This document shows, in pieces, positions 18 to 52,428 of a DNA stretch of 64,000 nt. A program made the translations under genes and the position numbers. The stretch is from Moniliella sp. 'wahieum' (Eukaryota), in NCBI GenBank assembly GCA_003971905.1, contig RSEE01000076.1, forward strand, positions 1-64,000. Reading direction: 5' to 3'. The notes below the pieces were generated by a model. That model saw only the letters and a list, made by a program, of their open reading frames with translations. It did not search any database and was not told the DNA's origin. Each line of letters opens with the position of its first letter. Within the stretch, counting starts at the first letter, position 1.

Positions 18-37
18 GATGGAGAGCGTGGGTGGAG

Positions 38-5657: not shown

Positions 5658-8600
5658 ACGACGTACGTTTTAGTAATATAGAACCGAGTAAGCTAGCGAG
5701 CTAGTGGCCTGCGAGCTAGTGGGCGATTATAGAGCATAGGTCGCCATAACCGATTCCACGGCATGTTGACAAGATGCGTGGTGCAAGGTTCAGGGCAAGC
5801 ACAGGACCGTGGTTTCCCAGGGCGTTTTTTTTCTCGTCTGATTAATGCACAGTGTATACTTGATTCTCTCGATCTCAGATTGGACAGGCTAGCCGATCCA
5901 GGGCCCACGTGTAGCATGCCATACGTACGCGAGTGTACCCTGCTCGCCTGCTCAACGTCCGCGTCAGGCCTGAGGCCTCAGGCCTCAGGTCAGGCCCCAG
6001 TGGGGCCACCGCCACCGTCTCGCTCAGCGCTCACCGGCGCGCTCAGTCCGAGCAACTCAGGCTGAGCACCGAGCCTGTCAGTGACATGTGCATGTGAGCA
6101 TGCCAGGGTCACCGGTCACCAGTCAATGTCACGTGCATGCCACATGTCACAAGGGCCCACATGTCACAGGCGTGTCGCAAGGGCTCAGCGCCAAGGGCTC
6201 GCATGTCATATATCATAGCTCACGTGTCACATGTCACATGTCACACCTCAAGTCATCGACATCTAGCATCGTGCATCGACATCGATCATCGATCATCTGA
6301 CCGGCTGACCGGCCTGGCGCGTGACACCTGAGGCCTGACGCGTGACGGCCCGATCGGCCTGATCCGTCCGATCCTGAACGCGTGATTAGATGGGGGACCG
6401 CGGGACGCCAGGGGACGCGTCACGCCTCACGCCACCGATGCTGCTCCGCCGGCCAGCGCCCTGCGCCGCCACTGCCGCCACCCGACACGGGTGCAAATTC
6501 AACACCTGCACTCCCCCCGCACGTACCAACTGGTGGGGCCAGGTAAAGTATTACCGCCTACCACCTCACAGATGTGTTGTGCCATGTAAGGCTAATGTCC
6601 ACGGTCCAAGATCCAAGGTCCCAGGTCCAAGATCCAAGATCCAAGATCCAATAAGGCCCAAAAGATCCAAGGTCCATGTGACGCCACCTTGGTGTAGTAG
6701 CGCCGGTAGCCCAAGTCCAGATCCTTTTCCTGGAGCATTCCATCCTTCCGATATTCCGTCCGGGAGGACAGAAGTATTCTCCAAGAAAGAATAGTCTCTA
6801 GTAGTCATTTAATCTCTAGCCTCTGAAGCACGTGTGCAACGCGATGCCCACCATCAACTGCCTACTCTCTCTGGTCTTCAAGCTTCAGCATTCCAAGGAT
6901 GGAAAAGGGGATGGAGTTGTGAAGCTTGCAAGCGGTACTTACTTAGGGCATGCACTGTGGTAGTATGCATAATAGCTTGCAGAAGCTTGGGCAACTCAGC
7001 GCTTATCAGGTTACCGGTTACCGGTTATCAAGGCTATATACTTAGTATTTAGTACTTAGGCATCGGGTTATACTATATATCCGCAGGGCAGACATAGTAT
7101 GTAAGACACTTCAGGTGCTCACTTGGCGATCTTGAAGCTTGAGGTTTTGACCTTACGCTTAAGCTCATGCGATCAAGTCGATCAAGCTTGAGCTTCTTGA
7201 GTTTCATCATCGACATCATCATTGAAAGCCATATACTGCTGCGGCTGGCGAGGATGGGAGATAGGCCATCTACAGGCCACATTCCATCTTCACTGAGTAC
7301 TGACATGCACTGACACCCTTAGCTTCAAGTCTTACCCGGCCACCGAACCGGCTGATCTGTCTTCGTAGGTGAGGTCACCGGGTCACCATCTCAGCCCCAA
7401 GTGTCAAAAAGCTCGTCAAGCGCCAAGCGTCAAGGTCGTCAAGCGTCAGCGTCAAAAGCTCGTCAAGCGTCAAATTTCAAACGTCAAGACGTTCGGTTCG
7501 GCTGTGCGGTGAGCCTGATCTCAGGTGGGCCAGCCTAAGCCATCCTTGTTTCCAAAGCCCCACACAGTGATGAGTAAGCCGGTGTGTCAGGATCGACTGA
7601 TCCATATGACCATTTACAAATATCTACCCATCTTCCCACCCCGCGCTAGCCCTAGTAGCCCCCTTGCCTGATAAGTGCACAAAAGCTATAGCCACAAAAT
7701 CGACGTGATCGATACTCTTCAATCGATAAGCCCACAATGGGGGACGGAGGCGGTGGCGATGGCAGTGGCGCCGGGACGTGAGGCCTGAGGCCCGAGGAGA
7801 CATACAAGAGTACAAATACATCGCGGGGCGTGGGGAAAACGGGGGGGGGAGGGGAGGGGGATCATTCGGTAATACTGGGCCCACTAGCCACTCCAAAGAT
7901 ACAAAAGCCAAGGGAAAAGAAGAGAAAGAAAAAGCAGAAGCATGCAGAGCAGACCACAAGCCAACGCAAAATATATCGAGCCGAAGGGGAACCGATCCCA
8001 CATTCGGCCTCATGTCATGAATCATGGATCATAGATCATGGATCAAGGGTCCGTTAGCTCGCTTTCGTGTAAAGGGTAGCCACGAGCAACCGACCCAAGC
8101 AAATCCAGATTGGAGGTGGGGGGGTGGGAGTTCCAAACGGCCAGCGCGAGTGCGTCAACCCGACCCACCGGTAACCGGTAATCCATATCCCTCCGGGGCG
8201 GAAGGAAGCCACACCTGACTGGCGTGCGACAGGCGGTGGGGGGACGAATGGGAAATAGGAGGAAACCCAACAGAGAAAAGGCCATGGGGAAGAAGAGGGT
8301 AGTAAACGTAAAATACAGACTGGAGCGGTCCAGCGGTCGCCCCGTGCCCGTGGTGGTGGTGGTGGCCATCCTGGGCCTCGGGGTCAAAAACGTACGAGGT
8401 CACAACGTAGGAGAGAGAAAGAGAAGGAGCCAAAGGTGGATCATGGGTCAGGCATACGCGCCAGGATGCGCATCGATGCGGTGAGGCAGTCCCCGGCCCA
8501 TGGTTGCTTTGCATTGCATCGGGCCGACTACCGGGATCCGTTCGACCCTGCCTACTTGGGTGCCGTGGGGAGCATCCATCCAAGTCCCTCGGCCACTACA

Positions 8601-8708
8601 CGCCCGACCCTGCAGCGGGGGGGGGGCGAAGGTCAACTACCCTGGTGCCCTCTGGGAAAGGGGACAAGCGATCGCGATGGCAAAACGGGGAGAAAGGGAG
8701 GGGGGGGG

Positions 8709-9531
8709 CTAAGGATAGCCCTTGCGCGGCTGCGAGGGGCAGTTCTTGATCCCCGACGAACTGAGCCTACGGGGCCGACTCATTGTCGACGAGAAAAATT
8801 GATCCGAAGGCGCGCTAAAGGAGGAAGAGCGCGAGGAGATCGAGGGCCAGTAAGTGCTGGTTGCATGCGTCCCATACGTCCAGGCCGAAGAAGAGGCGCT
8901 GGAGAAGGAGAAGGTGGACATGTGTCCAAGTGAGAAACCGAGGGGGAGGAAGGTGGGGAGGGGAACTCGCCCAAGGAGGAGGGGAAGTGGGTCGACGATG
9001 AGGCGGGGGAAGAAGGGGAGAGGGCCTGGTGGGCGGGAACAAGGGGATCGGCATCAAGTTCAGTATTGTCGTCCGTAGGAGGCTCGGAATAAGTGTCGAG
9101 TTGGATTGGCTCAGGAGGCGGCGGAGGCCGGAGGAGGAGAGCAAGCGACCTGCGGCCCCGGCGGGTTGCGCACAAAGGTATCACGGGGAGCTGCTCTTCG
9201 CTCGGAAGGGACGGAGCAGCGTCTGGGAAGCAAAAGCTGTGCCAGTCGGGGGGACTGGCCGACACCACGGGGGGCGATGCGGAGCGGGTAGGGAAGGCAT
9301 GGGGATGAGCGGGAGACATGCGGGGCAAGGCGAGAGGAGGCCGCTTGCGAGGCTCGGGCAGAGTGGGGGGTAAGATCCGGGCGGGGTCCGAGGCGGTGCG
9401 AGCCAGGCTGCGGCTGGGGGGGAGGAGCAGGGAGAGTAGATCATGGGGAGGTCGCCGTCCAGGTAAAGACCCAGCAAGTTGGTGCTGAGCGCCGGAGGCG
9501 CACAGAGGTCGAGGGGGGTCGGTGTGTGCAT
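8709..9531 (-). CDS. Hypothetical Ser/Pro-rich protein (frameshifted ORFs 9181-9531, 8780-9328, 8709-8921)
   Basis: ATG in gccgccATG context, TATATA ~105 bp upstream (9636-9641), overlapping low-complexity ORFs; no recognisable domain. Confidence 0.35.
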
Positions 9532-10830
9532 GGCGGCGATGCGGAGGGCAGAAGAGGGAGGAAACAGGGCGGGGGTGAGGCGTTAGAATGAGGGGGGGGG
9601 GGGGGCAGGGAGGGGCAGTGCGGTAGCGATGCGGATATATAATCGGCTGAGCGGGGGCAAGGCAGGGCAGCGCAGGGCAAGCAAGACGACACAGCTGCAG
9701 TGGGGACGCGAGGGTGACGCGTCACACATCAAGCGTGAGCGAATTTCCCCAAGACCGGTGAAGGCCCAAGGTTCAAGCGCTCAGCTCAAGCTTCAGATGA
9801 TGGATGATGAAGCTTGAAGTGCTGCGGCGTGACGCGTGACGGTACGTTGACGTCAAGAGATCCGGGATCTGAGATCTCGGATGTCAGACGTTAAGGGCAA
9901 TGAGTTTAACGTTAAACGGTAACTAGCTTAACTAGTAACTAGTAACTGTTAACGCGTAGCGTTTTTACGTTAACGCTTAGCGAACGCAGTCGGCACCAGT
10001 AGCTCAGTACTGGGTATGCGTACTGCGTATTGCGTTTTACATGTCCCATCGTAGCGTCCAGGGCGTCACGCGTCAGGCGCGTCAGGCACTGCACAACCTC
10101 CAACGTTCAACCACCGCACACGTGCAGCTGAACCCAGCCTGCGCCAGCACAGTGTCGCCATGCCCGCCGCAGCACGACACTTCGTCGGCTAGCTGAGATC
10201 TGAGATCGGGGAGGCCGCCTGAGGCGGTAGGCTGTGGCGGTCGGTCTGCCGTACCAGCTGGTACCTACACCAGGACTAGGAACGAGGTACTACCATCTAG
10301 CAACTAGTAACGCGTAACGCGTAACGCGTAACGCTAGCAAACGCGTGCTTATTCCCTCTTGTTCCACGCCCCCGTACGTACGGCGTGCAGCCTTACCATG
10401 TCTACACCCTGACGCGTGACGTTCTGTTCCAAGTGCGCTGAGGCTAACCCCTCAGCTGAGCTGCCGTGGCCGCCACCTACTAGGCCAACCAGAGCAAAAT
10501 CCGCTCAGCGCTCACTCGCCCTGTGTACTGCTCCGCTGCCTCACCGTCAAGCGTCACGCGTCACCCTGACATGTCACACATCTCACATCTCAGATCTCAA
10601 TGTCACATTTCCACACAGTGCCACAGTCCCCTTCGCCCCCGACAGCCCAAGATTTGCGGGGGGCAACGTTGCAGGGTACGTTGCACTTCCGCAGCGGAGG
10701 TCCCGCGTTCAGCCTCAGGGCTCGGCCTGAGCCTCAGGCCTCAGGCTAAGGCCTCGACGCTCAGCCTGAACGCTCAAGCGCTCTAGCTTCAAGCACGCTA
10801 GCTTCAAGCGCTCTAGCTTTAAGCGCTCTA

Positions 10831-10971
10831 GCTAACTTCAAGCTTCCAGCTAGCTTCAAGCTTCCAGCTAGCTTCAAGCTTCCAGCTAGCTTCAAGCTTC
10901 CAGCTAGCTTCAAGCTTCCAGCTAGCTTCAAGCTTCCAGCTAGCTTCAAGCTTCCAGCTAGCTTCAAGCTT
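10831..10971. repeat. 18-bp minisatellite (GCTAGCTTCAAGCTTCCA)x~7.8
   Basis: Near-perfect copies at 18-bp spacing, preceded by shorter related units from ~10783. Confidence 0.95.
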
Positions 10972-11012
10972 TGTGAGAAGGCACAGCCGGGGGAAATAGT
11001 GAGGAAAAGAAG

Positions 11013-11082
11013 AGACTCGAATGGGATTCGAACCCATGTCATCGCCTATGGCCAGGGATGCTTACCACTACGCTATCGAGCC
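11013..11082 (-). tRNA. tRNA-like gene, probably Gly(GCC)-derived, with defective D and anticodon arms (pseudo-tRNA or indel errors)
   Basis: Acceptor GGCTCGA/TCGAGTC, A-box TAGCGTAGTGG, perfect T-arm ATGGG-TTCGAAT-CCCAT, GCCAT in the anticodon region, T-rich run downstream; 70 nt with an imperfect anticodon stem. Confidence 0.65.
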
Positions 11083-14000
11083 GGGATAAGAGCAGCTGCA
11101 GGATCACAGTCTAACAAGCTTCCAGCTTTCTTCAAAGCTTCAAGCAGGCTCGGCGCACCAGCTTCAAGGCGCTCAAGCTCTCAGATCTCATGCTTCAACG
11201 TTCAACGTTGAAGTTCAACCTTCAAGCTTCAAGCGCAGCGCCAGCAGATACGTAACCAGGTAACTTGTAACGCGTAACGCGTAACTGGCGTAACCGCGTT
11301 ACCCCGGTAACCACTAACCGTTAAATGTTAAACGTTAAACGTTAAACGTTAAACGTGTTCAACGTACCAGGCTCACGCACTCACCGGTCACCGGTCACCG
11401 GTCACTGTCGTTAATCGGCTCAGCGCTCAGCGCGCTAAGGCTCAGCAACGCACAGCAGAAGTGTGGGCGCATGCGCCCCGCAGTGACTAGTGGCTAGTGA
11501 CGATCACCGATCCCCTAATGATTTAATCATTAATTGATCATCGGTCATCGACCATCGACCATCTCACATGTCGCGTGCATGTCACTCGCATGTCGTCGAT
11601 CATCGATCATCGATCATCGATCGCCTGTCGTCTTCTTACATGACATGGATGATCGATGATGGTGGTGCATCCAATCGCCCAATTCTGCAGTGCGCTCAGC
11701 CTGAGCACAGGTCGCATGGCCGAGTCAGAACAGCTGTCGGTCTGCCTTGTGGATGTATATCGGTTCTTCTTGGGTCGAGCCAATACCAGTCGCTCATCGA
11801 TTATTCTTCAAACTTCATCGAATCCATCATTGACGTTTAACGTTTAACGTACTGATCGATTATCGATTATCGATCGATTATCGTTCATCGCTTCTCGACC
11901 GTGTCAATTTTATTGACCCACATCTGCCCCATCCCGATCCGGCCATCCACGCTGTTGTACGACAAGTCTGGGATGGCGCCAGCGCTGGATTCCCTGAGGA
12001 TAAACTGTCTTACCGACGCTGGAACGTTACGCGTTACGCGTCAGTACGTCAGTACACAACCACGCAATCATTCATCAGTACTCAGTGCATTAGCCCGCCG
12101 GCTATTGTCACGCATCATGTGCTCTCGATGTTCAACGTTCAGATCTCAGATCTCAGAACAGCCACTACCCCTACCCCATCTTTCCGTCTTCGATCTTAGA
12201 CTTCAGAATAAAAAGGCCATAGGCGTTACGCGTTGCGCGTTATGCACGTTACGTGTTATGCATTATGGCCTTAGGCCTTAGGCCTTATGCGCGAGCAGTC
12301 GAACCTCCCTTCTCCGCGAAACAGGCAAACAGACACTGTGCCACCTACCGTCGGTTACCGTTGTTTTGGCCACACCCACCCCACTCTTCAACTCCGTCTC
12401 TCCCCGCCCCACCTTCTGCCTATACTTCGCCCCTCGTATAACACTCCTGTTCCCTCGTCATCCAAATCAGCTCACGCTCATCCTCGTCACCCGTCACTAG
12501 TCACTATCAGTCTCCCGGGGGGGGTTCGCGCCCGTTTCCTGGCGAAGTTGCGATCCACCTCTTCTGATCTCAACGGTTTAATTGAAGTTCAACTCTCATA
12601 TTTCTCAATTCCAATAGCAAAGGGGGGGGTGTATACCTCGCAGCTGAGATGTCGGTGCCCAAGTGCTTTCGAGGATCTCCATCCATGCGGTAACTCGCGA
12701 ATCAGAGACTTGCAGATGGGATGTACTTAAAACCACCAACGGACCACACGCCGTCGATCCAGCGGCCTAATGGGAAGCTGTTGGGGAAGGCCAAAAAAGC
12801 TTGAACCACAACTCGAACACTGCAAGGCCAAGAACTCACGTTATAGGGGCGTTGGGAACTGGGTAATACGACGTTGAGCAATTAGCGGCTTCAAAGCTTG
12901 AAGCTTGAAGCTTGAAGCTTGAAACAGCTTTTGAGGGTGGAGGGTGAGCCGGTAAGGCCCTTAAGCGAAATGAACCAACGTTTCTCAAGATTATTATTAT
13001 AGGAATTGGCGATCCTCACATGTGTTACGCGTTGAGCGTTGAACGTTACGTTGATCGTACGTGGAACGTTGACGCGTTGACGTTTGGCGAGACTGAAAGA
13101 ATTCTGCTGAGAGCACGTGTACATGCAGGACGATCGAGGGGTGGGAGGACGAGTAGTCGAACACCGGGGAGCTGTCAAACGTTAACCGACAGAGGGCTTT
13201 CTCATAACTACTATAACTAACTGACGATTGCACCTATGCAGGGCAGCAACAGTTTTACAAGAGACATAATTTGAGTCGTGTAAGCTTGTGATGCATGCGA
13301 CCCTAATCCGACCTTGAGTGCAACCGGGAGAAACAGAAGGAGGGGGCGAGGCGCGATGGTATCCAGTCCGGAGCGCGCAAGCCGCGGAGAACACGGTGCA
13401 ACTATTATTACTACTCGTTCCGCTTAATATCTAAGCGATTTTGCCGACAAAGCCAAGTCAACTAGTGTGGTTCACATGTAATGCCACTACACCCCGAAAG
13501 GGGGGGTACTATATGCCGCCAAGACAGTCAACAAAATGCCAGAGCACTGGAAGAGAATCTCACTACGGGAGAAGGGTTTCATCGCCATATGATGGCCACG
13601 CGCATTCGAACCCACTTGGACAAAACATCCAGTTGGAAACGAATGGCGGGGGAGCCATAGAGGATTCCAACCTACTGACATATGAGATCACCACAACGGG
13701 CCTCTTGATTAAGTTGGCACCAGCTAGCACACCAACCGGATAAGCGAGCCTGGGCTAAATGGGTTCGTTGTCCCCGTCTACATATATCGCCTTACACATG
13801 TTGTAACGGAATACGAACTAAAAAAGAGCCACTCCTACAGACCTCAGACACCAGTCTTCTCGGCAAAGCCCGGACTGTGGTCCAATCCACACGGTGTAAA
13901 ACGGTACTTTCGCTTGGAAAAGGAGAGGCAATTCACAGTTGAACGTTGATCGAGCATCTGAACAGTAACGACGAGACGAGGTCCGGACGGAGCGAGAGAC

Positions 14001-16316: not shown

Positions 16317-17445
16317 GGAAGAGCGCGATGCCAAGCACAGCGAGCACGGCAGCCGAGGCGGTGGTGGCAGCGGACAGGCCGGGGCGCGGGGCGCAGGTGC
16401 TGCTGGTGTTGTGTTTGGATCCAATGGGCGTTGCGACGACGTTTCTACCTGGCGGCGGGGTGCACAGGGCACGGCGCCAGTGCGGGTATAGGCTGCTAGG
16501 CACCGCACCACCGGGGGATGCGCCACACAGGCCGCGTGCGGGCAGAGGCTTTCACTTTCCCAGTGCATCCCACGCCGAATCACCCGCACGGGAGGACTGT
16601 CGCACGGGGGCGTGGTGATGCGGCCGGTGATGCCGGTGATGCACCCGAGGCGCCTCGGCTGATTTGGGACCTACCCCGACCTACCCTTTGGCTCGCCATC
16701 TCGCCACTCCCACAGCTGACCCTTGCCCGCCACGCCCCCCACCCCGCCGGCCCCTGGCGCCTGACGCTTGATGTCAAGCTTGATGCCTGCCGCTCCCCCC
16801 CCCCCTTGTCCAGCAGAACAGACCGTCCCTCCCCTCGCGGCGACCCATCGGCGCCCCCGACGCCCACCCACGTCAACGTTCAACGGGCGTGGGGACCGGG
16901 TCCGTCGTCCGCCTCCGTCGTTCGCGCCCTCCCATTGCATCGCTTGCTGCCGTGCCATCTACACCCATTCTGGCGTCCCGGCTGCCAGCTGCAGGGGACT
17001 ACCCGTCTAGCTTCCCCAGCTGCCGACCGCTGCGGCCAGATCCCACGCATTCGTCTCGTTTTCGGTTTGCAGGTGCCATAGTCACTTGTCCAGCGGAGGG
17101 CCATGGAATGCGGGATGATCATCATCGATGAGGCCTGAGGCCTGAGGAGAGGAATAGAAAACACAAGACGCTGCTCAAGCGGCGGAGATGATAGGGGAGA
17201 ACACGCAGTGGCTTCACAGCTGCTCAAGGGACAGGCCGGGGGGGGGGGGGGGGGGCTCGACAGACAAGCGGGTAGAGAAGGGGCCTGCATGAGCCGCCAG
17301 GCGTGGGTGAAACGTTGGGGGAGCCGAGGCCGACGTAAGGAGGTGGGCGAGGAGGCGCAGACGGGTCTAGAGAGATGGGCCAAAAAAGAGGCGAGCAGAT
17401 GAAGGAGGAGGAGAAGAGGCAGGGGCAGGGTGTGCACGCTGGGTA

Positions 17446-18352
<907 letters not shown>

Positions 18353-19012
18353 GCTGGCAGAGAGGTGTGGGGAGGCACTGGAAGGGGGTGGGAGGAGGGG
18401 CGAGGAAAGCAGGGGCAAGCAGGGGCGGGCAGGGGCGAGCAGGCGCTGGTGGTGCGGTGGGGCAGAGGCCGTGGGCACATCGCATCCAACCAATTGCAGC
18501 GGCCCAGCGCGCAGCGGGACCACGTGGCTTGCATATTGCCACTTTCAACCTGCGGCTTGGTTCCTAATTCATTCCCCTGACGACGATGCCTACGCCGGCG
18601 TCCATCTGGCCCGATGCCTGTCCTCTCTTTCTCGGCTCCGTTCCCGTCGGACGCGCAGGCGGGCGCTCCGAACGGGATGGATTCGGCTGGGTCCATCGTT
18701 GGGGGTTGCGGCAAGGTGTGGCGGTAGGTATGGTGGGCTAGGCTTCCTACATGAGGGTTTTTCGCCCTCCATTGACGGCGGAGAGAAGCTCCACCTACTA
18801 ATGTCCTGGATGTGTACAGAGCGTACCGAGTATGGGGGCACGGGTAGCGTGCTGGACTGCATCCCATAGAGGCTCTGAGCGCGCCCATCGATCGGCTACG
18901 GTCAGATGGAGCAATAACAAAAGCGGTGCATGAGTGGTAACGTGGGGCAATGGCCCATGGCCCTTTGGTTGGGGGGGGGGGGTGAGGCGACTAAGCTCAG
19001 GGAGGAGCAAGA

Positions 19013-23604: not shown

Positions 23605-24934
23605 GGCGGTGGCGAGGGCGCAGGGGGGCGAAGGAAGAAGGCCGAACGGACAAGCAAGGGAAGCGAAAAGGAATGGGAGGCGGGCGGCGGGAGGGGACTT
23701 TGGGCAGCTACTTGACTAGAGGGACAGCGTCTAGTCAATAGTGACTAGTGACTGGGCCTGTGCCGGTGTCTGTGCCTGGCGGCTGGCCAGGCGGCTGGCC
23801 AGGCGGCTGGCCTGAGTAACTGAGTACTGAGTCTGCTTGGATAGGAGCCGTGGGAGGCGTGGGGCAGCAAGCTCAAGCTTCCACCTCCATTTCAAGCCAA
23901 GGCGCGCGTTACGAGCGCACCAAGCCCCACGTTCCACGTTCCACCGCCCACGACTACAAACTTTCAATGCCAGCCCACCCTGCTCTGCTCGCCGCTCCGC
24001 CTTGGCAAGCCTAGGCCTCCTCCGAGTCGTGTTGTCCACGCGCAGCGCTTCCGCTCTGGCTCCCGCCACCCCCGTCCCACGGGACGCGGTTGGATGATGC
24101 TGTGCGTTGGCCGACCCAGCCCACATCAACCGTGCTCGCTCGACCGTGGGACAGACGACACAGACGACAGCGACATTCCAGGTGAGAGGATCGATGAGCG
24201 TTATCGCGCAGCGCTCACTGAGCTCAGCATTGCAATCTGTGGGGGGTTCCACCGCTTTCTTTTTCATGGCGACGGACCATGGGAGGGTGCCCTTTTGAGA
24301 TGGAATGAAGCTGATGCGGGAAGGTGGGGACAAACAGGTAAGCACACTATCTTCTGCACCTGTCCCCTGTGCCTACGTTCGACCTATTCCACGTTTTCCC
24401 TTTCGATGGCAGTCCAACCCTACCTGCATACAAGAAAGACAACCTGCTTCCACCGCTGGACATGAGTGCCGGAGCAGGGCGAGCTGCTCTGGGGCCCACA
24501 GGCTCCTGGCAGCGATACCAATTGATGCGCTTGCCATGTTTTCAACAGAGCAGGCGTACAGTGCGCCCAGATCGGGGTTTATCAAGACGTGAACACACTG
24601 TGCACCGTTCCTCTTCCATCTCTCCTCTGCTACCCTGAGCGTTGCCCTTTTCATCTGGGGACTAGAGGTGGAAACAGTTATCTCATTCTCGGCGGTGAAT
24701 GGAGGCACGAGCAAAGGACCATCTGCACGCGCCGCACAAGAGCGGGGGTACGCGTAGATCCCCGATCCCAGGAATTGAGTGAGATGCGGGTCGAAGCTGC
24801 TAGAGGTGATGTGTGCGTTGGTCCGCATGTCTGGTGATACGCGATGCCTCGGTTGCGAGTCTATGGAAGGAAGTGGGGAGGGGGTCAAGCAATGTGGATC
24901 GATTGGCACAGCTTGGGAGGTGGGATAGAAGCGC

Positions 24935-29925: not shown

Positions 29926-30564
29926 GCGAGACTGTGATGCTCGCTTGTACAGCTCCCGAAGCTTGTAGCTCTTGCGAAGGTCGTTCCAATTTCCGATTAT
30001 GGCTCTCGTGTCTCATTTCGGTTGTCCCGCCCCCCTTTCGTTCCCTCCTTGCTATGCTTTTCCGATCCAATGTACTGCGCTTTTCTTTCCCACTAAGAAC
30101 AAGCCAACACATGTTGCGCATTTTGGCGGGGTTCGCACTCGCCCTAAATCAGTTCGTGGAGGGAAGAGCACTGCATGTGAACCAATCGATGCTAAAGCGC
30201 TGCGTGCCGTGCCCAAGTCCAAGTGACCAGCGTTGTAAAGAAGACACCTTTTATATTGAGAAAAGGGGAAATGTCGCGCACTAGATCCTATTTGGAGATG
30301 AGAAGTGGGGGATGGCCAAAAGGGTCTTGAGACCTGCTGTGCGACGTCATTAACGTGATTGGCCTCTTAGATCGGCTATACTATTACTGTCGTGGGTGGA
30401 AGATGCAGCAAGGCATAGCCGGATATATGAGAGTAGCCTGGTGTGGACAAGACGCGTCTCGCGTCTCGCGTCTCTGCCCCCATTCAAACTTTAAGTCTTG
30501 ACACATGGTATAGACCACGAAAGGCAGCGACGTGAGATCTGAGATCTGAGATCTGAGAGAGTTA

Positions 30565-30829: not shown

Positions 30830-32864
30830 GGTTAGGGGCAGGAAGGAGAAATAGAATAGGAGCCAGATTCTTAAGGAATTCTTCTTTTTCTGTGATACCG
30901 AATGGATAATTGATAGCGCGCGATGGCGACGCTCCAACGGAACGGCTTGCCAGGCAGACTAGGCATAATACACTCAGTGTATATTGGATTAGCGCTGAGG
31001 CTCAGCCGTGAGGCTCAGCCACCCTTCCCCTGCTCTGAGAATCTGAGCCCGTAGCAAGAAGCGGAAAACGGAGGAGAAGAAAAGAACAGGAAGAGGAAGG
31101 GAGGGAGGCCATCTCTTGGTACCTTTGTTTGGAACGCTTCGATGGTATATGACCTGGGTAACATGATACGCCCAACCGCGTCCCGTCGTCCCGTCGTCCC
31201 GGACACCGTGGGGCGTGTGACAGTGGGTGACGCGCGTGACGTGTGATGCATGATGGGCGTCGCCAGCATTGATCGAGAACATGCATCATGGACGAGAGCG
31301 GCAGGGCACCTGCCACATGCCACTCCGCCACAGTCGCAGTGTTACCCGAGCAGTGGCTTGCAGCACCCAAAACTGCCAATATAGGTGAGACGCAGCTGAG
31401 GCAGCCTGAGGCGTGGAGCGTGCAAGACGTGCTTTGTGGGTGTCACGGTCCTCTTAGCTAACCGGGTAATGATTCCCAAACCTCACCGATCTCACTACTC
31501 TTCTCGTCGATCTTGTCTCCTTTCGACCGCTTGGTACTTGTCTCACTCGTATCGCCCGACCCTTACACTGGGCGGATGAATGTAGCAGTGCATGGAGAAA
31601 CGCCCGAAGACAGGATACTGAATCCGGAATCCAGAATAGACATAATGGGCCCTCAGGCTGGTCTCAAGACATTCGTATCATTTCGATAACCGGCTGGACC
31701 TTGTTTTATTGACGCCGATGCATTATGACGTTGACGGTGGAGGTTGCAGTGTGGATGTAGACTGGGGTACAGGGATGCTGGTACCGGTATCCGGTAATCG
31801 AGAGTGACCTAGTGACTAGTGAGGGTGTCCCCGGTAGTGTATGGCCTGGCATGGCTCGGCGAGGCCGAAGAGAGGGACAGACAGAGAGGGCAGCCAGCAC
31901 TCCGCCTTCCAAAGAAGGCAGCACACCGCAGGCAGAGGGGCAGCCCAGGGGCGCAGGCTTGGCGCCTGCGTGCGTCGTGCCTTGCGTCGCACTGGAGCGC
32001 GCCGCACCAGGCCAGTCAGGCCAGCGCATCTGCCATTCGTCCGAAGTGGCGCAGCGGCTAGGGTGCGTTACCTGCGCGCTGTAACCCTGCCGGGCACGGC
32101 GACACTGCAGCGCTGCGGCTGGCTTGCTGCGGCGCTCGCGGGCGCTGCTGTGCTGCCCGGAGCCTCCGAGCGGAAGCGACGTGTGGCGCAGGGCGGCGCC
32201 GTGCCTGGCTCTCGAAGCGCCAGTCTGCATCCTGCACCCAGGGTCGGCTCCCGCCCGGTCGCAGTACTCACTGTCGGGAGCAGGACAGTGGCCTCTCGCC
32301 TCCGCAGGCGCACTGCCGCCCCCACTGCGGAACCCGCATGCATTTGGAATGCAGCAGTGCAGCCGCAGCGCTTCAAGCAGCGATGATTAATGATTCCAAT
32401 TCTCGAGGCTCGCGTGGCCACGCTGGACTGCGTCGTGCGCTGCCACGGCGGCTGTCTGCGCCCGTGTCTTGCGGCTGCGATCATCGGTCAGGCCCTGCAG
32501 GGTGTGTTTTGGTTTGGGCTGCGCCGTCAAATTTCAAAGCAGCCAGGCCAGGCCATCATGCATCATGCATCATGTATCCGCCGCAACAGCAGGCTTGGCT
32601 TGGCTTAGCGCTTAGCCCAGTATACCCGCTCCGATTAGAGTCCCTCCTGGGCCCTGGGCTGGGGCGCGGCGGAGGCCCCGCGTCGTGACGCCTCCCGCGC
32701 CCCCCGCCCATCGATCCACACCCTCTTCTACCCATCCTGCCCATCCCCAAGCGCACTCCCACCATCCCCATCGCCAGCACCACCGCCAGCATCACCGCCA
32801 GCACCCCCCCATCTATATCTTCTCACGCACATCCTCCGCATCATCCATCGCCGTCCCCACCAGC

Positions 32865-35875: not shown

Positions 35876-36795
35876 TTACTGGTCGATGGAAGGGGCGGAT
35901 TCATCATCTTTCTTGGAAGATGCGGCTAGGATCTTGTCCTGCGTCTTGGTGGCAAAGTCATTGGGATCATGACGCTCATGCAACTGCTGATCGAGCGGTC
36001 CGGAAGTGTAATTGACGATCCGGCCGCGTTGAACTGCCGGGCGGGCTTGGATCCGTCGTGCCCACTCCAACACATGGGTGTACTTGTCCAGCTGTAAGAA
36101 GCGGTCGGTATCGGAATAAAAGCTCTGGCCTAGGATCAAGTTACCAAACCAGGGCCAAATGGCCATGTCGGCAATTGTGTACTCGGTTCCAGCCACGTAG
36201 GGTACATCCCCCAAGCGCCGGTCGAGCACACCGAACAGACGCTTGGTCTCCAAGGCAAAGCGGTTGATAGGGTACTCGTATTTGGTCGTGCAAAACGAGT
36301 AAAAGTGACCATGGTTGCCCAGACTGGGCGCACAGCCCATTTGCCAAAACAGCCAGTTGAGCGTTTCGGTCCGGCCACGTACGTCGGTGGGAAGGAAGGC
36401 ACCGTACTTGTCTGCCAGGTAGAGCAAGATAGATCCCGACTCGAACACGCGTACCGGGCCATCTTCCCCGCCGCGCTATAGTCCACCAGCACAGGGATCT
36501 TCGCATTCGGGTTGGCTGCGACGAAGCCCGTGCTGAACTGCTCGCCTTCCACCGCGTTGATCAGCCACGCATCGTAATTGTCCAACTTGCCCACCTCGAT
36601 CAACTCTTCCAGTAGGATGGGCACTTTCTGCCCGTTGGGCGAGATGCCAAGGTTGTACAGCTGCAACGGCATCGCGCCCCGTGGAAGCGGCGCTTCAAAC
36701 GTCGCTCCGGCCGTCGGGCGGTTGATGTTGGAAAAGGGCGCGTCGGCAGGAGGCTGCTTCCATACTTCGGGAGGAACGTAGGGGGAAGAGGCCAT
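35876..36795 (-). CDS. yghU: YghU-like glutathione-dependent disulfide oxidoreductase (Nu-class GST), copy 1; intronless
   Basis: YVPPEVW..FSNINRP, LQLYNLGISPNGQKV, YDAWLI, NPNAKIP, FESGSILLYLA, NWLFWQMG, YTIADMAIWPWFG, RPAVQRGRIVN, QLHERHD; one frameshift near 36470. Confidence 0.92.
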
Positions 36796-37367
36796 GGTCC
36801 ACTTGGTGAGGATGAGGGAGGCAGCAGTGCGCGGGCGGGGTGGGTGGGTAGCACTCACACAGCCAAGGTGGTGGTGGCAGGCACAAGGCCAAGCCAAAGA
36901 GGGCTGGTCAATGGCGGGGTTAATGGTAGTGTCTCCCCAGCGGAGCTAAGGCGGATTATCTGCGGGTCGCTGAGCCGATACCCCCGTGAGCCATATTAAT
37001 TGGAGCGGGGGCGGGCAGGTTTGGCCGTTCCCCCGGTCCACCTGGCCAACTGCGGGGAGGTTCTCGGTTCTGTTGGGGCTGGGTTCCTCGTTCCGCAGTC
37101 ACTGGTATGCCCACAGAGACCAACTAGTACGACGGCATGAGGCACGACTCTCAGGGACACCATGCCATCCTCCTCGTCCGTGCGGCCATCCACCACTTGG
37201 CAAGCGACTAAAAAGAGGCGGGAAGATGATGCTATATGCACGCCGGATTCCGAGCCTTTGGGGTGCAAGAACGAAACACGAAACAGAGATCCACACATGC
37301 ATTGGCGCTATACGAGGCATCAAACAGGTTAGGACTGACTTCTTGTCTCGATATGAAATCTGTTACG

Positions 37368-38272
37368 TTACGCTGCGTTGGCCGCTTGCACCTTATCCTG
37401 GGTTTTCGTCGCAAAGTCCGAAGGGTCGTGCCGTTCGCGCAACTGTCCCTCCAACGGACCTACATCTCGGTTGACCATGTGGCCGCGTTGGACCGCTGGG
37501 CGAGCGGCGATCCGCTTGGCCCATTCTTGTACATGCGGGTACTCGTTCACGGCCAAAAAGACCCCCGAATTGCCATACAGTTTGCCCAGGACCATCGCGC
37601 CAAACCAAGGCCAGATAGCCATGTCGGCAATGGTGTACTCGGTTCCAGCGACGTACGGCACGTGTGCCAAGCGGCGATCGAGCACGTCGAGCAACCGCTT
37701 AGCCTCCATGGAAAAGCGATTGATAGCATACTCGTGTTTGGTAGTGCAGAAATCATAAAAGTGACCAAAGTTGCCAAAGATGGGGCCAGTGCTCGCTTGC
37801 CAAAACAGCCAGTTGAGCGTCTCGGTGCGCCCACGCACGTCCGTCGGGATAAACCCGTTATACTTGTCTGCCAAGTAGAGCAAGATGGAACCCGACTCAA
37901 ACACGCGCAACCCTCGCCCTCGCCCTCGCTCTCGCTCTCGCCCTTGACTCCATAGTCCACCAACACAGGGATCTTCGAGTTGGGATTGGCCGCGACAAAG
38001 CCTGTGCTGAACTGGACCCCCTCGCGCACGTTGAGGTACCACGCATCGTAATTGTCAAGCTTGCCCGCGTCAATCAACTCTTCCAGCAGGATGGGCACTT
38101 TCTGCCCGTTGGGTGAGGTGCCCATGTTGTACAACTGCAGCTTGGTCGGGCCACGAGGGAGCTCGGCTTCGAATGTCGCCCCGGCAATGGGGCGATTGAT
38201 GTTAGAGTAGGGTGCGGGGATGTGGTCCCACTTCCATACCTTGGGGGGGACGTAGGGCGGAGTGGTGGCCAT
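37368..38272 (-). CDS. yghU: YghU-like GST, copy 2 (tandem paralog); intronless
   Basis: YVPPKVWKWD..NINRP, LQLYNMGTSPNGQKV, NPNSKIP, FESGSILLYLA, FGHFY, INRFSMEAKRLLDVLD, QLRERHDPSDF; a GE/SE microsatellite insertion and a frameshift near 37915-37945. Confidence 0.92.
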
Positions 38273-39630: not shown

Positions 39631-41279
39631 CCAACTAAAGGGGGGGAAACCGGTAACTGGTAAGTGGGTAACCCCGGTAACCGTCGTGCCTCGGACCCAT
39701 CTCGAAGCTTGAAGTTTGAAGGTTGACGCACTTGACGCGCTTGACGTGAGCTTGACGTGGGCACGGGGGCGCGTTTGACGGGAATAATGCGCTGCATGTA
39801 GACCGCCCGTTGGACTTCAAATACTGAGTACTGATTACTGATTGGCCTTTGCCCCGACGGAGTCGGTGATGCGGGGTGGGGTCTTGGGCCTTTTAGTTGG
39901 GTGTGACATGTGAGATGTGAAATGAAGTGGGGCACTTTGGGCGGTAGAACATGATGAGGGTGCCAGGGTGGGTAAGGTTCAGGCTGAGCGCTGCTGAGCG
40001 CGCTGAGCGCGTATATCCCTCAGGCTGAGGTCTCGTTCGACTCTCAGCAACACAGCGAGCTGCGTACGAGTTGGGAGGCAAAGGGCGGCGGTACGGTCTA
40101 GTACGATCTAAGAGGAGACCTGTGGGAAGATACGATGTGCCGATTGGAGATGTGCGAAAAGGAGGAAGCAAGGGCGTGGGACGGATCCCCCTTTTGCGCG
40201 TAGATATCGAGAGTGGGGGCGGAAAGGGGGAAAAGAAAAGGAGGGCAGATGGCACTGGCACATGGCTCTCGAGAGAAAGCAATGCGAAACGCATAACAGG
40301 AGGTGGGGGAGTGGAGAGGGGGTGTTGGGTGCACACGAAAAGGGGGTGGGGCCTGAGGTGAGGCTGGCTGAGAGCGCTGAGATTAGATGTGGGATGCTGA
40401 GAGGCGGGTGAGATGGGCGAGCGACGCTGGCCTGTGGGTTGGGATGGACGTTTTGCGGTTGAGGCTGATAATCGATAAGCGCAAGTGGCAAGCGGTAAGC
40501 GGCAAGTTAATGGCTTGGCATAGAAAGCTGAAAGTTGAATGCGGAATGCGGAATGTTGACGTCACTAGTCACTAGTGCCTGCACCCTGCACCCTGGCTGC
40601 CACGCAGCGCAATGAAATGTTGAGGGCCAAGCCGAGCCAGAGAACGTTCTGTCGCGGCTCTGGGTTCGGATTGTGCGCTGGCGGAGCGCTGAGCCTCAGC
40701 GCTGACGCCCTGCGCACGATTCGATTGCGATCGCTGACTGCTGAAAGTAGCCATTTCAAATTTCAAATGGGAAGGCGCGCCCAGCTGCCGTCTGAGATCT
40801 CACCGCTCCCCCCCACCGTTCCCCGCACCCAACACTGGCCTCCCCGCGCTGCGTCTTTCGCCCGGCCGCGGCCTCTGTGGGCGCGGGAGCAGTGTCGCGT
40901 GCGCTCGCCACGGCGCGGCCGCCCCGCACGCGGCCAGTGCCCGGCGCGCATAGGGGCACACACCCCGCCGTGCCCGCTGCCCCGGCCCGGGAGCGCTGTG
41001 CGCGGCCGGACGGCACGGCGGCGGCGGGAGCGGGCAGCGGCACGGGGGCAGCCGACGGCGCGTGTCGGCCGTAGGCTGCTCTCCTGTCGCGTCCATGCAC
41101 TGTGCCCGCACTGGCCGGCACTGGCCTGCCCTCGCCCTCCTTGCAGCATTCGCTCCCTAATTTCAGATCGCCCTCCAGCGTCCGTGCCTGCACGCAGCCC
41201 AGCCTGAACGCAGCCCATCCGTCCCATCCCATCGTATCCCCATCTCCTCCGCCGCCGCCGCCCCACCACCACCGCCCCC

Positions 41280-45346: not shown

Positions 45347-46774
45347 CTTGAACTCAGGTCACAAGGCACCTCCAGTCGGTTCAAGGAAGGGAGCTGTTGA
45401 GCATGGGCATGGCCATGAGCAGGGGAAGGGTAACCAGGCACGCTTGCGACCCGAATGGAGGGAGGAAGGGAGGTGTAAACTTACCCCTCGGTTGGTGGGT
45501 ATGTTGTTACTGCTTTATTCTTGATCCTTCCTTCCCTCCCTCCCCCTTACCACCCTTTGCTCCCTTTTTTCCTTGCCTTGCTTTGCTCTACCTACATCTA
45601 CCCAATACCTTTCCCCTCGCCCATGGCACCACGGCTCGTGTGCCCTCGCCACGCTTAGCCGCGCCTACCCGCCCACATCCCCCTTATTTCTTTCCTTCAT
45701 TCCCTCTTCCTTCTTCGGCTGTTCCCACCATCGGCTCATCTCGCCTCTCGCCATCTCATCCTCTCCTTTTTGGTTCCTGTAGTTGGTCTCCCGCAGTTCC
45801 TCCCCCCTTCATTCTGTTCCCCCCCGCCGTTCTCCCTCTTTTCCCTCCCTTTCCCTCGTCTCTTTGTCCCCTCTCGTCCCTCTCGTCCCCTCTCGTCCTT
45901 CGTCCCTTCACATCTGGGGCTCTGTCCGACTAGGCGCGCTTGATTCAATTGGCGCTGTACTGTGGATACCGTTTTGTATTCCATCCCATCCCATCCCATC
46001 CCACCCAGTCCATTCCTTCCATCGTGGCCTCGTAGACAGTTTCGTCTGAAGCTGAAGCTTGAAGCTTGAAGCTTGGGAGTCGCCTCAGTCTCAATCCTCA
46101 ATCCTCAGTCCTCAGTCCTCAATCTTCCGTGAGCTCAGTACGCCGTCCGCAGTACTCACCGTTCCGACGGACGTACGTTAAACGTGTAGGACTAGTAGAA
46201 TACGGATGGGGACAGGCAGCCCGCCCCCCTGCCCATGTGCGGGTGCGTTCTCAGTTCTCTGTCGTTTAGGCGATTGCGGGTGATCGCTACTGGATCAGTC
46301 ACCAGTTGATAGGTCGCTAGTACTGGTATACTATACGGTTGTTAGCTGGTTGCCACCTGTGCCTTTCCAACAGATCGAGCCTGTCTAGAGTTCACCCTGT
46401 TCATGGTAGAAGCAAGTAGAGCGGCGCGAAGTCTGTTGTGTTCGACAGGCTGTTATGTCAATGATGCAGCAGAAGCTGACCAGGGATAGTACTAACGAAT
46501 AGATAACGAGGCCATTAGATTAGCCGAGAGAACAGTGCAAACTGCAACCAGCATATGGAAAACAGCCAAAGGACCAGAGACGCCACAGGAAGCAGTGGGA
46601 GAGGTGGGAGGGGGTACCGATCGTCCGGAGCAACTAATAGCTCCTTTCACACCAACACATTCTCGTTGACCCCAGCAAACCCAACTAACAAGCCCACCCT
46701 TCATCATCTCCTTCTCCCTTCCTGCCACACATGGAGACCTGAGCGGGTGACCGACGCCGCCTCGCATCGACCTT

Positions 46775-47471
46775 TCAAGCCCCTCGGCGCGTAGAAGCAG
46801 ACAAGCCCGCAACGCGCTCTTTCGCTTCCCGCTCCACATGGGCACGCGCAAGTTGACCCAACACTTGCACTGCAGCCACACGGACCTGCTGCGTTTCCCG
46901 TACCAGCCAATCATGTTCGTCCCCATCCATCGCTCGGTCCTCGACCACCGCCGCTTCCACCTCGCCTAACCACTTGAACAGCGCACTGGCATCCAACACC
47001 TTCCCACTTGCTGTCCCGGACCCTGCACTTGCACCTCACCGTCCTTACCGGCCATACTGCGCGCAGCGACCGACCCCACGCTCCGCTCTTTCCCACTCGC
47101 GAGGAAAGAGGTACGCTGAGCGCACGTGGGCGAGCCAAGTAATCCGTCGGGACGCGGGACGGTGGGGAGCGTGTCGTCTCCCGTGTGTATCGAGGTGGGG
47201 TACGGGGGCGCGAGAGGGAAAAGGCAGAGGGAGAGGAAGGGTGGGGGCGTAAGGAGCACGTGGGGTGGCGAGAGAGTGAGTAGGGCGGGAAGTCGAAGAT
47301 TCGTCCGAGCCGAGAGGTGGGGTGACAGCCATTGTGGTCAGAACACTTGTTCTGCTCTGGTCCCGCTGGTCCTCCTGTGTGTGGAAAGGTGGGGGGGGAC
47401 ATGAGTGTTCAGGGCAGACCGGGTCGGTGGGACAGTGGGAGTCGGGTGCAGGACGTGCGCGTGAGTATGTG

Positions 47472-47505
<34 letters not shown>

Positions 47506-49515: not shown

Positions 49516-52428
49516 GAAGCTTATTGACCAGGACGGCGGGCGAGGGGAGGATTGGTTGGAGTGACCAGCGTGACTAGGTGACGGATGGTGATGGTGGTAA
49601 GCGGGGATGCAGTAGGAGGAAACGTACGAGCAGTTACAAAGTGCAAAGCAAAGCGATGAAGCAAAACAAAGCAAAGCAAAACACATGCGCAAAGCACGAG
49701 CAATAGCCCCTCGGGTTTAGGCGGCCCGAGGGAAACTACTAGGACCAAGAAGCCATACGCGGTCGCATCCTGTCCCAGCTCTCCATCCGGCAAGTGGCTG
49801 TCGCAATCAGCCGGCGGCTACTGGCGCAGCTCTAACGGCTATACACTCTGCCGTGTATATCAGGCATCTGCACCATGCACATGTGCATCACATCGATCCT
49901 CAGATCTTCAGAGGCCGATTTCACAGGTCTCGGATCGATCCCGCTTCCGGCTTCGACGGTTGCACCTTTACCCACCCAGCCGGACCAGCCGCACCAGCCG
50001 CACCAGCCGCACTAGCCGCACCGCCCGCGACGGGTGTCCTCGTGGCAAGGCGTGGTAGAGCGTGGCTGCTTGTTCAAGGATGGATGATTGGGCAACACAG
50101 GTCACCGGCAATGTGGAACCCCGACACTACGCCACCCCTTGGCTGGGACAGGGTAGCCAAGGCCCGAGCCAGGGTACCTGTTGCAGGATTATGGATTAGG
50201 CCGAGTGGGGCTAGTGGGGCTGAATTCTGAGATCCGAGAGGCTGAGGCTGATGGGCCTGGAAACTTCCGATCGGTGCCCGTCTCTGTGGATCTTCCTAAC
50301 ATGTAACAGACCAGACGGGACGGTCCGACGTATGTTGATGGTCGATGATGCAATGATGCATTGAGGCGCGATGATTAATTGATTGTTGATCGATGATCGA
50401 GATGAACAGTATCTCTACTTCGCTGCTAGCAACGACCAACTAGCAACCAGCTAGTCCAGGTTCGTCATAAATCACGAGGAAGTGCTATCGGATGATATTC
50501 TTAGTGCCTTCGCAACCTCCGCTTGCTTCTGTTGGAGGTCATAATAAGTAACTAGTAGCAACTTCTCATCCTGTCAAGCTTCAAGCTTCAAGCTTAGCTT
50601 CAAGCAGCTCCGACTATCGATTCGATACTGGGAACCACAGGGAGGCAGGTAACGCGCGGTAACGGGATCGGTAACGCGTAACGCGTAACTGTAAGCTTAC
50701 TGACAACGTACGTACCGACTTGTACGTACTCAAACTACGCCACGCGGACCACGTTCTCCACATCACAAGTTCAAACGCTAAACTGTGTAACTGAGTGTTG
50801 GGGTTTGGGATCCTATCTCAAGGGTTGTCCAGGGGCCAGCAACCCATTGGGGGAGCGTGCCCATTCCAACCTATCCCACCTATCCCAATCCTTCCTCCCG
50901 GCAAGGTGCAGCAGGGTGCAGGAAGGGTAATCATTAATCATTAATCAGTAACCACTAAGCACTAAGTACTAACAAGCCTTGTAGGGCAGAGGTGTGCCAG
51001 ATGCACCAGGGTGTCGCAGGGTGTAGCCCGGATTTAGCAGTGTCCGGTGCCCGGTGAGGCTGAGGCCTGTGGCTAGTAAGTTGCAGGAACTGACAACTGA
51101 AGTGGACAGGAACGCCCGGTTCTCGCTTGCAGCCACTAGTACCTCGTAGTAGCAACCTAGACACCTTTCCCGCCCGTCTCAGTGCGTCAGCGCCTGAGCG
51201 CTCAGCCAAATCGATGGACACACAGATTGTGACGTGTGGGAGTGTGGCAGTATGGCTTTGGAAACGGGGCTTGAAGCTCAAGCTTGGGCATAGGCACTTC
51301 TGCACCAGTGTGTCACATATCATGCATGTCAGCGCACGCTCAGCGCTCAGCAGGCGCCAACGCCTTCAAGCTTCGCTAGCTTCAAGCTCTTCAAACGCTG
51401 GAAGCTCTTCAAAAGCTTCAAGAGGCTCAGAGGCCCAGAGGCCCAGAGGCCCCGAAGCTCGCTCCGCGCTGAGCCTCCGCGCTGAGTACGAGTAGTATCC
51501 ACATCCTCAGATCTCAGAGCTTCCAGGTCTTAGGTCTGAGGTCTTGTCCTTAGGCCGTAGGGCTCGTTGGATAGGAGTCTGAACGTTGAACACGTTTGAA
51601 CGTTGAAAAAGTCGATAAGGTAAGCCTAAGCTGTGAAGAATGGAAGCTTCAAGCTTGAAGCCTGAAGCTTGAAGCTGGAACGTTGAACGAATTTTAGAAG
51701 GTGGGGGTTCCTTCCAAAGTTGAGACCTCTATGAGGGTTAGATGCGACCGCCCAAAGCCGAGAAGGTGCGACCGTCCTTAATGGGTTACTATCACAGTCG
51801 GGGCTAGGGTGAGGCCGGTGAGGGACGAAGACCCCAGTCGAGACTAGGTCAAGGGATGTAGCAATCATTCGTGGGTAAGAAGCAAGAGCAGAGGGCATGG
51901 CGCGAAGCGGAGGAACAGGGAAAGAGCGAGATGCTCGGGACGAATGAATTGGAGACGGGTACGAGATCAGCCAAGCTTGGGCAGCTACTACAAACACCCT
52001 TCATTCAGGTTGTCATACCTGGTGCCTTACGACCCTCCGCCCCCACCCGCGTGGGCAAGTTGGTAAACTAACCGTCAAATAAGGGATACCTAGTTCTCTC
52101 ACCCTCGCCCCATCCTAAAACTATAGGACACACACACGTTTTGGGACAGTATACAGGCATACATGTCATAAAGGGGACAGGGAAGTAACAACAAGCGTAC
52201 ACAGTTTGCAACCACAAGAGGTATCATGAAAGCAAATGCGAACATCCCAGAATAGATGTACAGGCCACACGGTCGACGTTGATCGCTAAGGGCTAGCCCA
52301 CCCGACGCTCGAGCTAAGAGGGGGAAGCAACAAAAGCAGCATCAGCAAGGACAAAAACAGGGAATCCAAACGGGGATCCGAGCGTGCAATCAACGAAACG
52401 ACCGCATGGCCTCTTCATGCGCCAACTT

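Follow-up and report, generated by a model that had tools for sequence, protein, structure and literature searches.

T-N-A-anchored palindromic heptamers in the non-coding DNA of a Moniliella contig and their possible origin as transposon excision scars

The heptamer rule and its distribution

The stretch analysed here, called the window below, comprises the first 64,000 nucleotides (nt) of contig RSEE01000076.1 from Moniliella sp. 'wahieum' (assembly GCA_003971905.1). Its 5' end consists of telomere repeats (CCTAAC, positions 1-17), its G+C content is about 59% over the 64 kb, and its genes have a fungal look: an Arf-family GTPase, an asparagine synthase, an RGS-domain protein and two GST copies, together with ribosomal protein S10 and the Phe-tRNA synthetase beta chain. 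Its non-coding DNA holds many short arrays of a 7-nt unit, which a preliminary description of the same DNA had characterised as a palindromic hexamer starting with A and ending with T, plus one spacer base. We write this unit as T N A w x x' w', that is, T-N-A followed by a 4-nt palindrome, which equals the hexamer A....T plus one base. Our data were the window itself, 80 distant metagenome loci and published papers. Open reading frames (ORFs) were taken stop to stop at a minimum of 110 amino acids, which gave 241 in the window. The coding mask consisted of 10,655 nt of Pfam-supported ORFs; a mask based on the periodicity of G+C at third codon positions, which labelled only 9% of the window, was dropped.

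Exact period-7 runs of at least 14 nt occur 79 times in the window, where 20 dinucleotide-preserving shuffles, the chance background used throughout (100 shuffles for counts at 12 nt or more), give 4.2 on average. Forty-seven of these 79 runs consist of a palindromic hexamer plus one base (shuffle mean 0.45), and 45 of the 47 have the A....T outer pair. The two exceptions, CCATGG+C at 18950-18963 and GGGCCC+T at 32646-32659, are both of minimal length. When runs of at least 12 nt are counted, the T-N-A (TNA) type reaches 93, as against 4 for CNG, 3 for ANT and 3 for GNC, with shuffle means of 0.78, 2.29, 0.79 and 2.07, respectively. The CNG, ANT and GNC classes are at chance level, in agreement with the earlier impression that other outer pairs form no equivalent arrays, and the suspected enrichment of A....T units over other units and periods is upheld by these counts. 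Reverse-complement-symmetric runs are rare at other periods: period 6 has 3 among 102 runs, period 8 none among 11 and period 9 has 2 among 14. The heptamer pattern in the window is real and lies far above chance.

The sequence that fills this geometry varies. All 20 intervals listed in the preliminary description contain exact period-7 runs of the unit named for them, and its count of 14 among the 16 possible palindromic cores rises to 15 with TATA (6206-6217), ATAT alone being absent. All four bases serve as the spacer, as had been noted; on the plus strand, N is C in 44 runs, G in 32, A in 9 and T in 8, with T(C/G)A accounting for 82% of spacers. Distances from one TNA to the next peak at 7, with 274 cases where the baseline is about 100, and at 14, with 175. 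With 15 cores in use, cores that mirror their flanks and run ends that are phased (see below), it is the geometry rather than the sequence that stays constant, and the arrays are not copies of one element, as had been proposed. Together, the data support the view that a single recurrent process, defined by geometry and anchored on T-N-A, produced the arrays.

The runs avoid coding DNA. None of the 93 TNA-type runs lies in the Pfam-supported ORFs, where 10.6 were expected because these ORFs contain 275 of the 2,416 TNA sites (P = 2.5e-5). An artefact of reading or assembly is unlikely, since it would not spare coding DNA, and we argue that the runs are real sequence under selection. They have added at least 951 nt to the approximately 53 kb outside Pfam-supported ORFs, or about 2%. 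One cluster surrounds the tRNA gene (5.3-14 kb), and others lie at 30.4-32.7 kb, 39.8-40.8 kb and 50.3-51.7 kb; the densest 2-kb bin, at 10-12 kb, holds 27 runs. The principal arrays, with the two genes that lie next to some of them, are the following:

5964-5989: TCAGGCC/TGAGGCC array with a spacer flip, reading TCA GGCC TGA GGCC TCA GGCC TCA GG, then the 5-nt repeat TCAGG TCAGG
6225-6245: TCA+CATG array, 21 nt
7009-7027: TTA+CCGG array, 19 nt
9929-9947: TAA+CTAG array, 19 nt
10307-10334: TAA+CGCG array, 28 nt
10813-10971: 18-nt higher-order repeat of AGCT-TCA-AGCT-TCC-AGCT units, 8.8 copies, 95% matches, beside tRNA-Trp
11012-11082, minus strand: tRNA-Trp, the sole tRNA gene in the window
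11327-11356: TAA+ACGT array, 30 nt
11381-11405: TCA+CCGG array, 25 nt
11418-11433: TCA+GCGC array, 16 nt
11596-11622: TCA+TCGA array, 27 nt
12267-12287: TTA+GGCC array, 21 nt
12894-12923: TGA+AGCT array, 30 nt
17129-17147: TGA+GGCC array, 19 nt, about 300 nt from the Arf-family ORF
17449-17862, minus strand: Arf-family ORF
30533-30558: TGA+GATC array, 26 nt
32554-32574: TCA+TGCA array, 21 nt
39822-39834: TGA+GTAC, 13 nt
40561-40576: TCA+CTAG array, 16 nt
40753-40768: TCA+AATT array, 16 nt
46053-46075: TGA+AGCT array, 23 nt
50574-50595: TCA+AGCT array, 22 nt
50928-50947: TCA+TTAA array, 20 nt

Some period-7 arrays have a palindromic core but a spacer one base off TNA: GATC/CAA at 6626-6651, TCGA/CCA at 11546-11563, ACGT/TCC at 23927-23944 and CGCG/TCT at 30453-30474. 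They could be either mutated scars of the kind discussed below that later expanded, or events at relaxed target sites.

Anatomy of single events and the pattern in relatives

The shortest runs reveal what one event looks like. Among the 30 runs of exactly 12 nt, 23 fall into 2 of the 7 possible phases (binomial P = 6.7e-8); 12 of them start at T and end at x, and 11 start at x' and end at A, which is one event seen on the two strands. Growth by slippage, or selection of the units as sites, would have put the ends in any of the 7 phases. Because the ends of the 12-nt runs are phased in this way, the minimal event can be written TNAwx + x'w' + TNAwx, in which a direct copy and two inverted bases, 7 nt in all, have been inserted. 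A count that did not presuppose TNA gave the same picture: an inverted 2-nt junction is present in 34 of the 122 period-7 runs of 12 nt, and the repeated 5-mer starts with TNA in 23 of the 34, where about 2 were expected. Two copies of TNAwx are separated by 2 nt in 196 cases, 140 of them being x'w', compared with 10, 56, 23 and 42 cases at gaps of 0, 1, 3 and 4; inverted-type fillers number 8 at gap 1 and 4 at gap 3. The inverted piece is thus of fixed size, essentially always 2 nt. In 49 isolated events, the reconstructed site is unconstrained outside T and A, and 40 of these events have C or G as the spacer. One-mismatch variants (179 overlapping 12-mers, compared with 140 exact ones) are spread over all 12 positions, as ageing predicts.

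Two other possibilities were considered and set aside. The plain 5-nt duplication TNAwx TNAwx, with its 10 cases, shows no excess over the same arrangement of other triplets. Hairpin opening at 1 nt found no support, palindromes broken at the outer pair only and at the inner pair only being equally frequent (20 vs 20).

The origin of the core sequence is best seen where two cores share one register. There are three such mixed-core chains, and in two of them each core mirrors its own outer flank dinucleotide:

6327-6347: cc-TGA-GGCC-TGA-CGCG-TGA-cg (chain from 6329), containing both products of an original site cc-TGA-cg
12130-12157: gt-TCA-ACGT-TCA-GATC-TCA-ga (chain from 12132), both cores mirroring the outer flanks and the chain continuing as a TCA+GATC array

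Both chains are as expected from two events at one site (cc-TGA-cg and gt-TCA-ga), one resolved to each side. The spacer flips point in the same direction. At 128 sites of the form T-N1-A/palindrome/T-N2-A, N is the same in 105, complementary in 15 and otherwise different in 8, so the flips that the preliminary description had reported within arrays are genuine. They make up 15 of the 23 differences (P = 0.0017 if flips were one third), and the flank dinucleotide matches the core at 9 of the 15 flip sites (P = 1.4e-5). Since flips are over-represented and mostly flank-matched, they belong to the same process.

Longer products define the size of the duplicated segment. When X + x'w' + X is extended leftwards to its maximum, with X ending in TNAwx, X is 5 nt long in 47 cases, 6 nt in 4, 7 nt in 8, 8 nt in 0 and 9 nt in 1. 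From this series, the duplicated segment extends to 7 nt (pq-TNA-wx) and ends there. Period-9 runs of exactly 16 nt (n = 23) have TNA at run position 3 in 6 cases and at any other position in no more than 2, and the gap-4 class includes X7 + 2 inverted bases + X7, a +9-nt product with TNA exactly in the middle of X7. The target would then be a symmetric 7-mer centred on TNA, which resolves the odd asymmetry that a 5+2 description has for a dimeric enzyme. The products of +8, +9 and +11 nt are:

6297-6310: +8 product CTGACC gg CTGACC (q-TNA-wx + x'w' + q-TNA-wx)
11130, 31803 and 50345: further +8 products
7170-7220: +9 products GATCAAG tc GATCAAG (7171-7186; exact period-9 run from 7170) and CATCATC ga CATCATC (7205-7220)
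10069-10087: +9-type period-9 run CGTCAGG cg CGTCAGG
11855-11883: TTA+TCGA array (11855-11874) overlapping the +11 product GATTATC gatc GATTATC (11865), in which both 2-nt inverted copies are kept
39667-39746: +9 products GGTAACC cc GGTAACC (39667-39682) and CTTGACG cg CTTGACG (39731-39746)
39993-40011: +9 product GCTGAGC gc GCTGAGC
40367-40382: +9 product GCTGAGA gc GCTGAGA
51808-51823: +9 product GGTGAGG cc GGTGAGG

As a class, period-11 runs with pq-TNA at both ends were discarded; they are few and at chance level, and the predicted filler is matched only at 11865.

We also looked for the pattern in related DNA. A search of metagenomes with an exon of the asparagine synthase gene returned the 80 loci, at best 78% identical in amino acids, which are too distant for orthologous spacers to be aligned and served only to ask whether the pattern occurs there. 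Six loci (L001, L003, L009, L010, L016 and L017; 68,750 nt) are GC-rich (64-71%) fungal-like contigs with asparagine synthase at 74-78% amino-acid identity, and they contain no TNA-type runs, compared with 14.5 per 10 kb in the window. A seventh (L018; 74% identity, 52% G+C, 19,564 nt) contains one. The AT-rich distant loci have a few, level with their ANT-type runs. As the closest metagenome relatives lack the pattern, the responsible agent is restricted to a narrower lineage. A metagenome search with the RGS-domain ORF found no relative. Within the window, the two GST paralogues (77% identity) yielded no informative 7-nt insertions or deletions in their non-coding parts, and there are no other dispersed repeats of at least 40 nt of use for comparison.

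Proposed excision scars and competing explanations

The window data establish a rule anchored on TNA, phased run ends, cores that mirror flanks, a duplication that stops at 7 nt, exclusion from coding DNA and lineage restriction. We favour the reading that the heptamer units are excision scars of one or more cut-and-paste DNA transposons with a 7-bp target duplication centred on TNA, and on these sequence patterns we hold it to be probably, though far from certainly, correct. One element or a small set of related ones would insert at a 7-bp staggered target, pq-TNA-wx, and duplicate the 7-mer. Excision would leave both flank ends as hairpins, as with hAT, Transib/RAG and similar DDE enzymes, and a host nuclease would open each hairpin 2 nt from its tip, leaving palindromic 3' overhangs of 4 nt, wxx'w' at the left end and q'p'pq at the right. 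Each overhang would be ligated to the opposite recessed 5' end, giving strands that differ only by a 4-nt bubble, and replication would resolve the site to pq-TNA-wxx'w'-TNA-wx or pq-TNA-q'p'pq-TNA-wx, each exactly 7 nt longer. Opening 3 nt from the tip would give the identical sequence because T pairs with A, and opening at 4-5 nt would give a +7 product with a flipped spacer. Retention of more of the second copy would yield the +8 and +9 products, and retention of both inverted pieces the +11 product. A scar would make a new TNA site, and repeated hits with later slippage could build arrays and mixed-core chains; overhangs inside an array would be identical cohesive palindromes, which may favour array growth. 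The hairpins, the heteroduplex ligation and the transposon itself are the parts of this scheme that we infer. We prefer an insertion-excision cycle to a bare break because a direct duplication together with inverted bases fits a site that was filled and then emptied.

The preliminary description had suggested cleavage at TNA followed by hairpin opening with P-nucleotide-like fill-in. The hairpin part matches the anatomy, in that cores mirror the flanking dinucleotide and run ends are phased. The anchoring on TNA also stands; a simple cut there does not, as the duplicated segment reaches 7 nt (pq-TNA-wx), with TNA at its centre.

Known systems resemble this scheme in part. The 8-bp target duplication of hAT elements has the consensus nTnnnnAn, in which position 2 is T and position 7 is A, whereas here the duplication reaches 7 nt and has its T at position 3 and its A at position 5. 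V(D)J coding joints and Transib offer a likeness in the hairpin, which is opened about 2 nt from its tip to give a 4-nt palindromic overhang; Artemis opens RAG hairpins at about this distance, and the Transib target duplication is 5 nt. In contrast to these joints, the events in the window have no signal sequences and no N-additions, and both of their sides are flanks of the duplicated target. PIF/Harbinger and CACTA elements share with the window a three-base T-N-A-like motif at the insertion point and make 3-bp duplications, the Harbinger target preference being TTA/TAA. Here, however, the duplicated segment is 5-7 nt, T(C/G)A predominates among the spacers, and C or G occupies the spacer in 40 of the 49 isolated events, so that the 3-bp TWA pattern is not what is found. 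The PIF/Harbinger type of duplication, which had been among the transposases suggested in the preliminary description and is canonically 3 bp in the passages of PMC12730594 used here, does not fit for the same reason.

The closest likeness is to the footprints of hAT elements such as Ac/Ds, Tam3 and Hermes. In the parts of PMC5873905 drawn on here, Ac/Ds scars in plants, budding yeast and Candida albicans are read as hairpin-derived P-nucleotide palindromes, Pso2 is implicated in hairpin opening, and ligase IV can join ends without microhomology. According to the same parts of that paper, these footprints keep the target duplication at the empty site, carry short inverted (P-nucleotide) copies between the duplicates with the other copy's terminal bases replaced, and have a scar set by the position at which the host opens the hairpin (PMC5873905). 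In the window, a direct duplication is likewise kept at the scar (copies of 5, 6 and 7 nt, none of 8), and the junction is of the P-nucleotide type, as judged from the inverted fillers (140 of 196 at gap 2), the phased runs (23 of 30) and the flank-mirrored chains (2 of 3). The differences, in addition to the 7-nt rather than 8-nt duplication, are the single dominant product class, the genome-shaping density, the iteration into arrays and the lack of an element in the window. Duplications of 7 bp are made by hAT7 of Pucciniales rust fungi and Kyakuja of Agaricomycotina mushrooms, which are basidiomycete cut-and-paste elements with a duplication of the length proposed here (PMC12730594). The passages of that paper used here report neither from smut-like yeasts, and the window offers no link to either family; the comparison is one of duplication length, target consensus and excision scars being outside those passages (PMC12730594). 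For Cryptococcus elements, the papers found give duplications of 8 bp and 4-8 bp, not 7. In full-text searches of the literature, no rule for palindromic 7-nt scars or repeats anchored on TNA came to light, in keeping with the earlier remark that no description of the rule was known. P-nucleotide excision scars are a known kind of mark, but these searches gave no precedent for the TNA target, for such uniformity or density, or for array building.

Several observations weigh against the excision reading. Among the 241 ORFs there is no transposase or DDE domain, and the window contains no candidate element with terminal inverted repeats flanked by a TNA-centred 7-bp duplication, no matching inverted-repeat or DDE element with the same duplication, and no element with CTCACTG ends. 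No superfamily with a preference for a central T-N-A in a 7-bp duplication is documented in those parts of the literature that we found. Ac/Ds excision in Candida albicans left 28 different footprints in 128 excisions, as reported in the part of PMC5873905 used here, and such heterogeneity stands against the single dominant product class seen here. A plain 7-nt duplication without inverted bases occurs at one locus only (9796). The simple scheme does not account for four 12-nt runs in phase (3,0), although the one at 9866, when inspected, looks like a decayed older array. Six of the 15 flip sites (7182, 9715, 16774, 17122, 28300 and 40696) are perfect 10-nt palindromes, T-N-A/core/T-N'-A, with no matching flank, and here the scheme fails. 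The 7-nt limit is its weakest quantitative step, with small numbers behind it (8 vs 0 vs 1). Finally, the density of 93 runs, with the DNA that they have added, is far above any description found in the literature.

It is possible, if unlikely, that the events are host-encoded and independent of any transposon, with a domesticated hairpin-forming transposase or a TNA-preferring nuclease making a 7-nt stagger at pq-TNA-wx that is resealed with two inverted bases. The absence of a mobile element or transposase from the window would then be expected, and the lineage-specific pattern, the very high density confined to non-coding DNA and the uniform outcome also speak for a host writer, the inverted piece being almost always 2 nt and the palindromes broken at the inner or the outer pair (20 each) giving no hint of other opening positions. 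However, a single break with transesterification hairpins would not duplicate the 5-7 nt between the cuts, fill-in of a 7-nt 5' overhang would give plain 7-nt duplications, of which locus 9796 is the only example, and a direct duplication with inverted bases derived from the flank is the signature of insertion and excision. We know of no host break-and-rejoin system of this kind. In its specific form, which we regard as decidedly unlikely, a domesticated hairpin-forming enzyme would repeatedly open T-N-A sites that flank genes and reseal them with a fixed +7 palindromic unit, at a rate per site similar to that of point substitution; if this were true, the genome would have a built-in writer of new promoter sequence and hairpin-prone repeats.

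Explanations without a dedicated enzyme fare worse. Reverse-complement-symmetric heptamers could form hairpins and therefore slip and expand more than other microsatellites, and arrays of 3-4 units, the secondary amplification seen in the 18-nt higher-order repeat and the one-mismatch variants spread over all 12 positions, as in ageing repeats, are what such dynamics would give. Yet the symmetry is found only at period 7, the T..A outer pair alone is enriched, cores mirror unique flanks, and slippage does not yield +8 and +9 products centred on TNA; it also needs a prior repeat, whereas minimal 12-nt events with phased ends form the commonest class. We therefore consider slippage as the source of the pattern quite improbable. 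A short template switch, in which the nascent strand folds back, copies 2-5 nt in the opposite sense and returns through the self-complementarity of the T and A of TNA, would produce the inverted dinucleotide and both the same-spacer and the flipped-spacer outcomes in one scheme. This fixed-register switching, also raised in the preliminary description, should act equally at CNG, GNC and ANT, which offer the same microhomology for the return but have 4, 3 and 3 runs against 93; in addition, the first switch would lack homology and need a zero-length loop, and 6- and 7-nt duplications that stop at 7 are not predicted, which makes it very improbable. Least credible of all are selected arrays of dimeric transcription-factor sites or an assembly artefact. 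The units do sit in gene-flanking DNA and contain triplets that resemble bZIP-like TGA/TCA half-sites, but 15 of the 16 cores are used, the local flank rather than a consensus dictates the core, and the run ends are phased; an artefact would explain neither the sparing of coding DNA (0 of 93 runs against 10.6 expected) nor 7-nt insertions that mirror their flanks.

If the excision reading holds, this genome would have kept a natural record of a great many independent events of breakage and repair, all of one defined chemistry. From this record one could read at what distance from the tip hairpins are opened (2-3 nt, less often 4-5) and in what way a basidiomycete joins 4-nt overhangs that are not cohesive. 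Transposon traffic alone would then generate short tandem repeats and lengthen the DNA outside recognised genes by about 2%, which would provide a testable origin for 7-nt repeat arrays near genes and, from the letters of the genome, an assay of the past activity and target rule of the proposed element.

Other repeats in the window

The 18-nt higher-order repeat at 10813-10971 consists of scar-type units that were secondarily amplified as a minisatellite. A 15-nt repeat (4 copies) also adjoins tRNA-Trp, the whole repeat region spanning 10774-10971. A perfect 11-nt tandem repeat, ATGTTCGACGT, present in 3.5 copies at 5619-5657, is outside the TNA-palindrome type. Towards the telomere, there are subtelomeric tandem repeats of 39/58 nt at 42-224 and a long imperfect (GGT)n tract at 2279-2428, and no ORF within 1-5000 has a Pfam match. 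The GST-like gene is tandemly duplicated on the minus strand at 35879-38054; its copies share 77-80% identity across some 600 nt, and the flanks of the copies are too diverged to be aligned. At 56100-57350, hexamer repeats (GAGTCA/GAATCC and similar; periods 6 and 12) form a long tract that looks coding; it has no Pfam match and probably encodes an acidic low-complexity protein rich in Ser, Glu and Asp.

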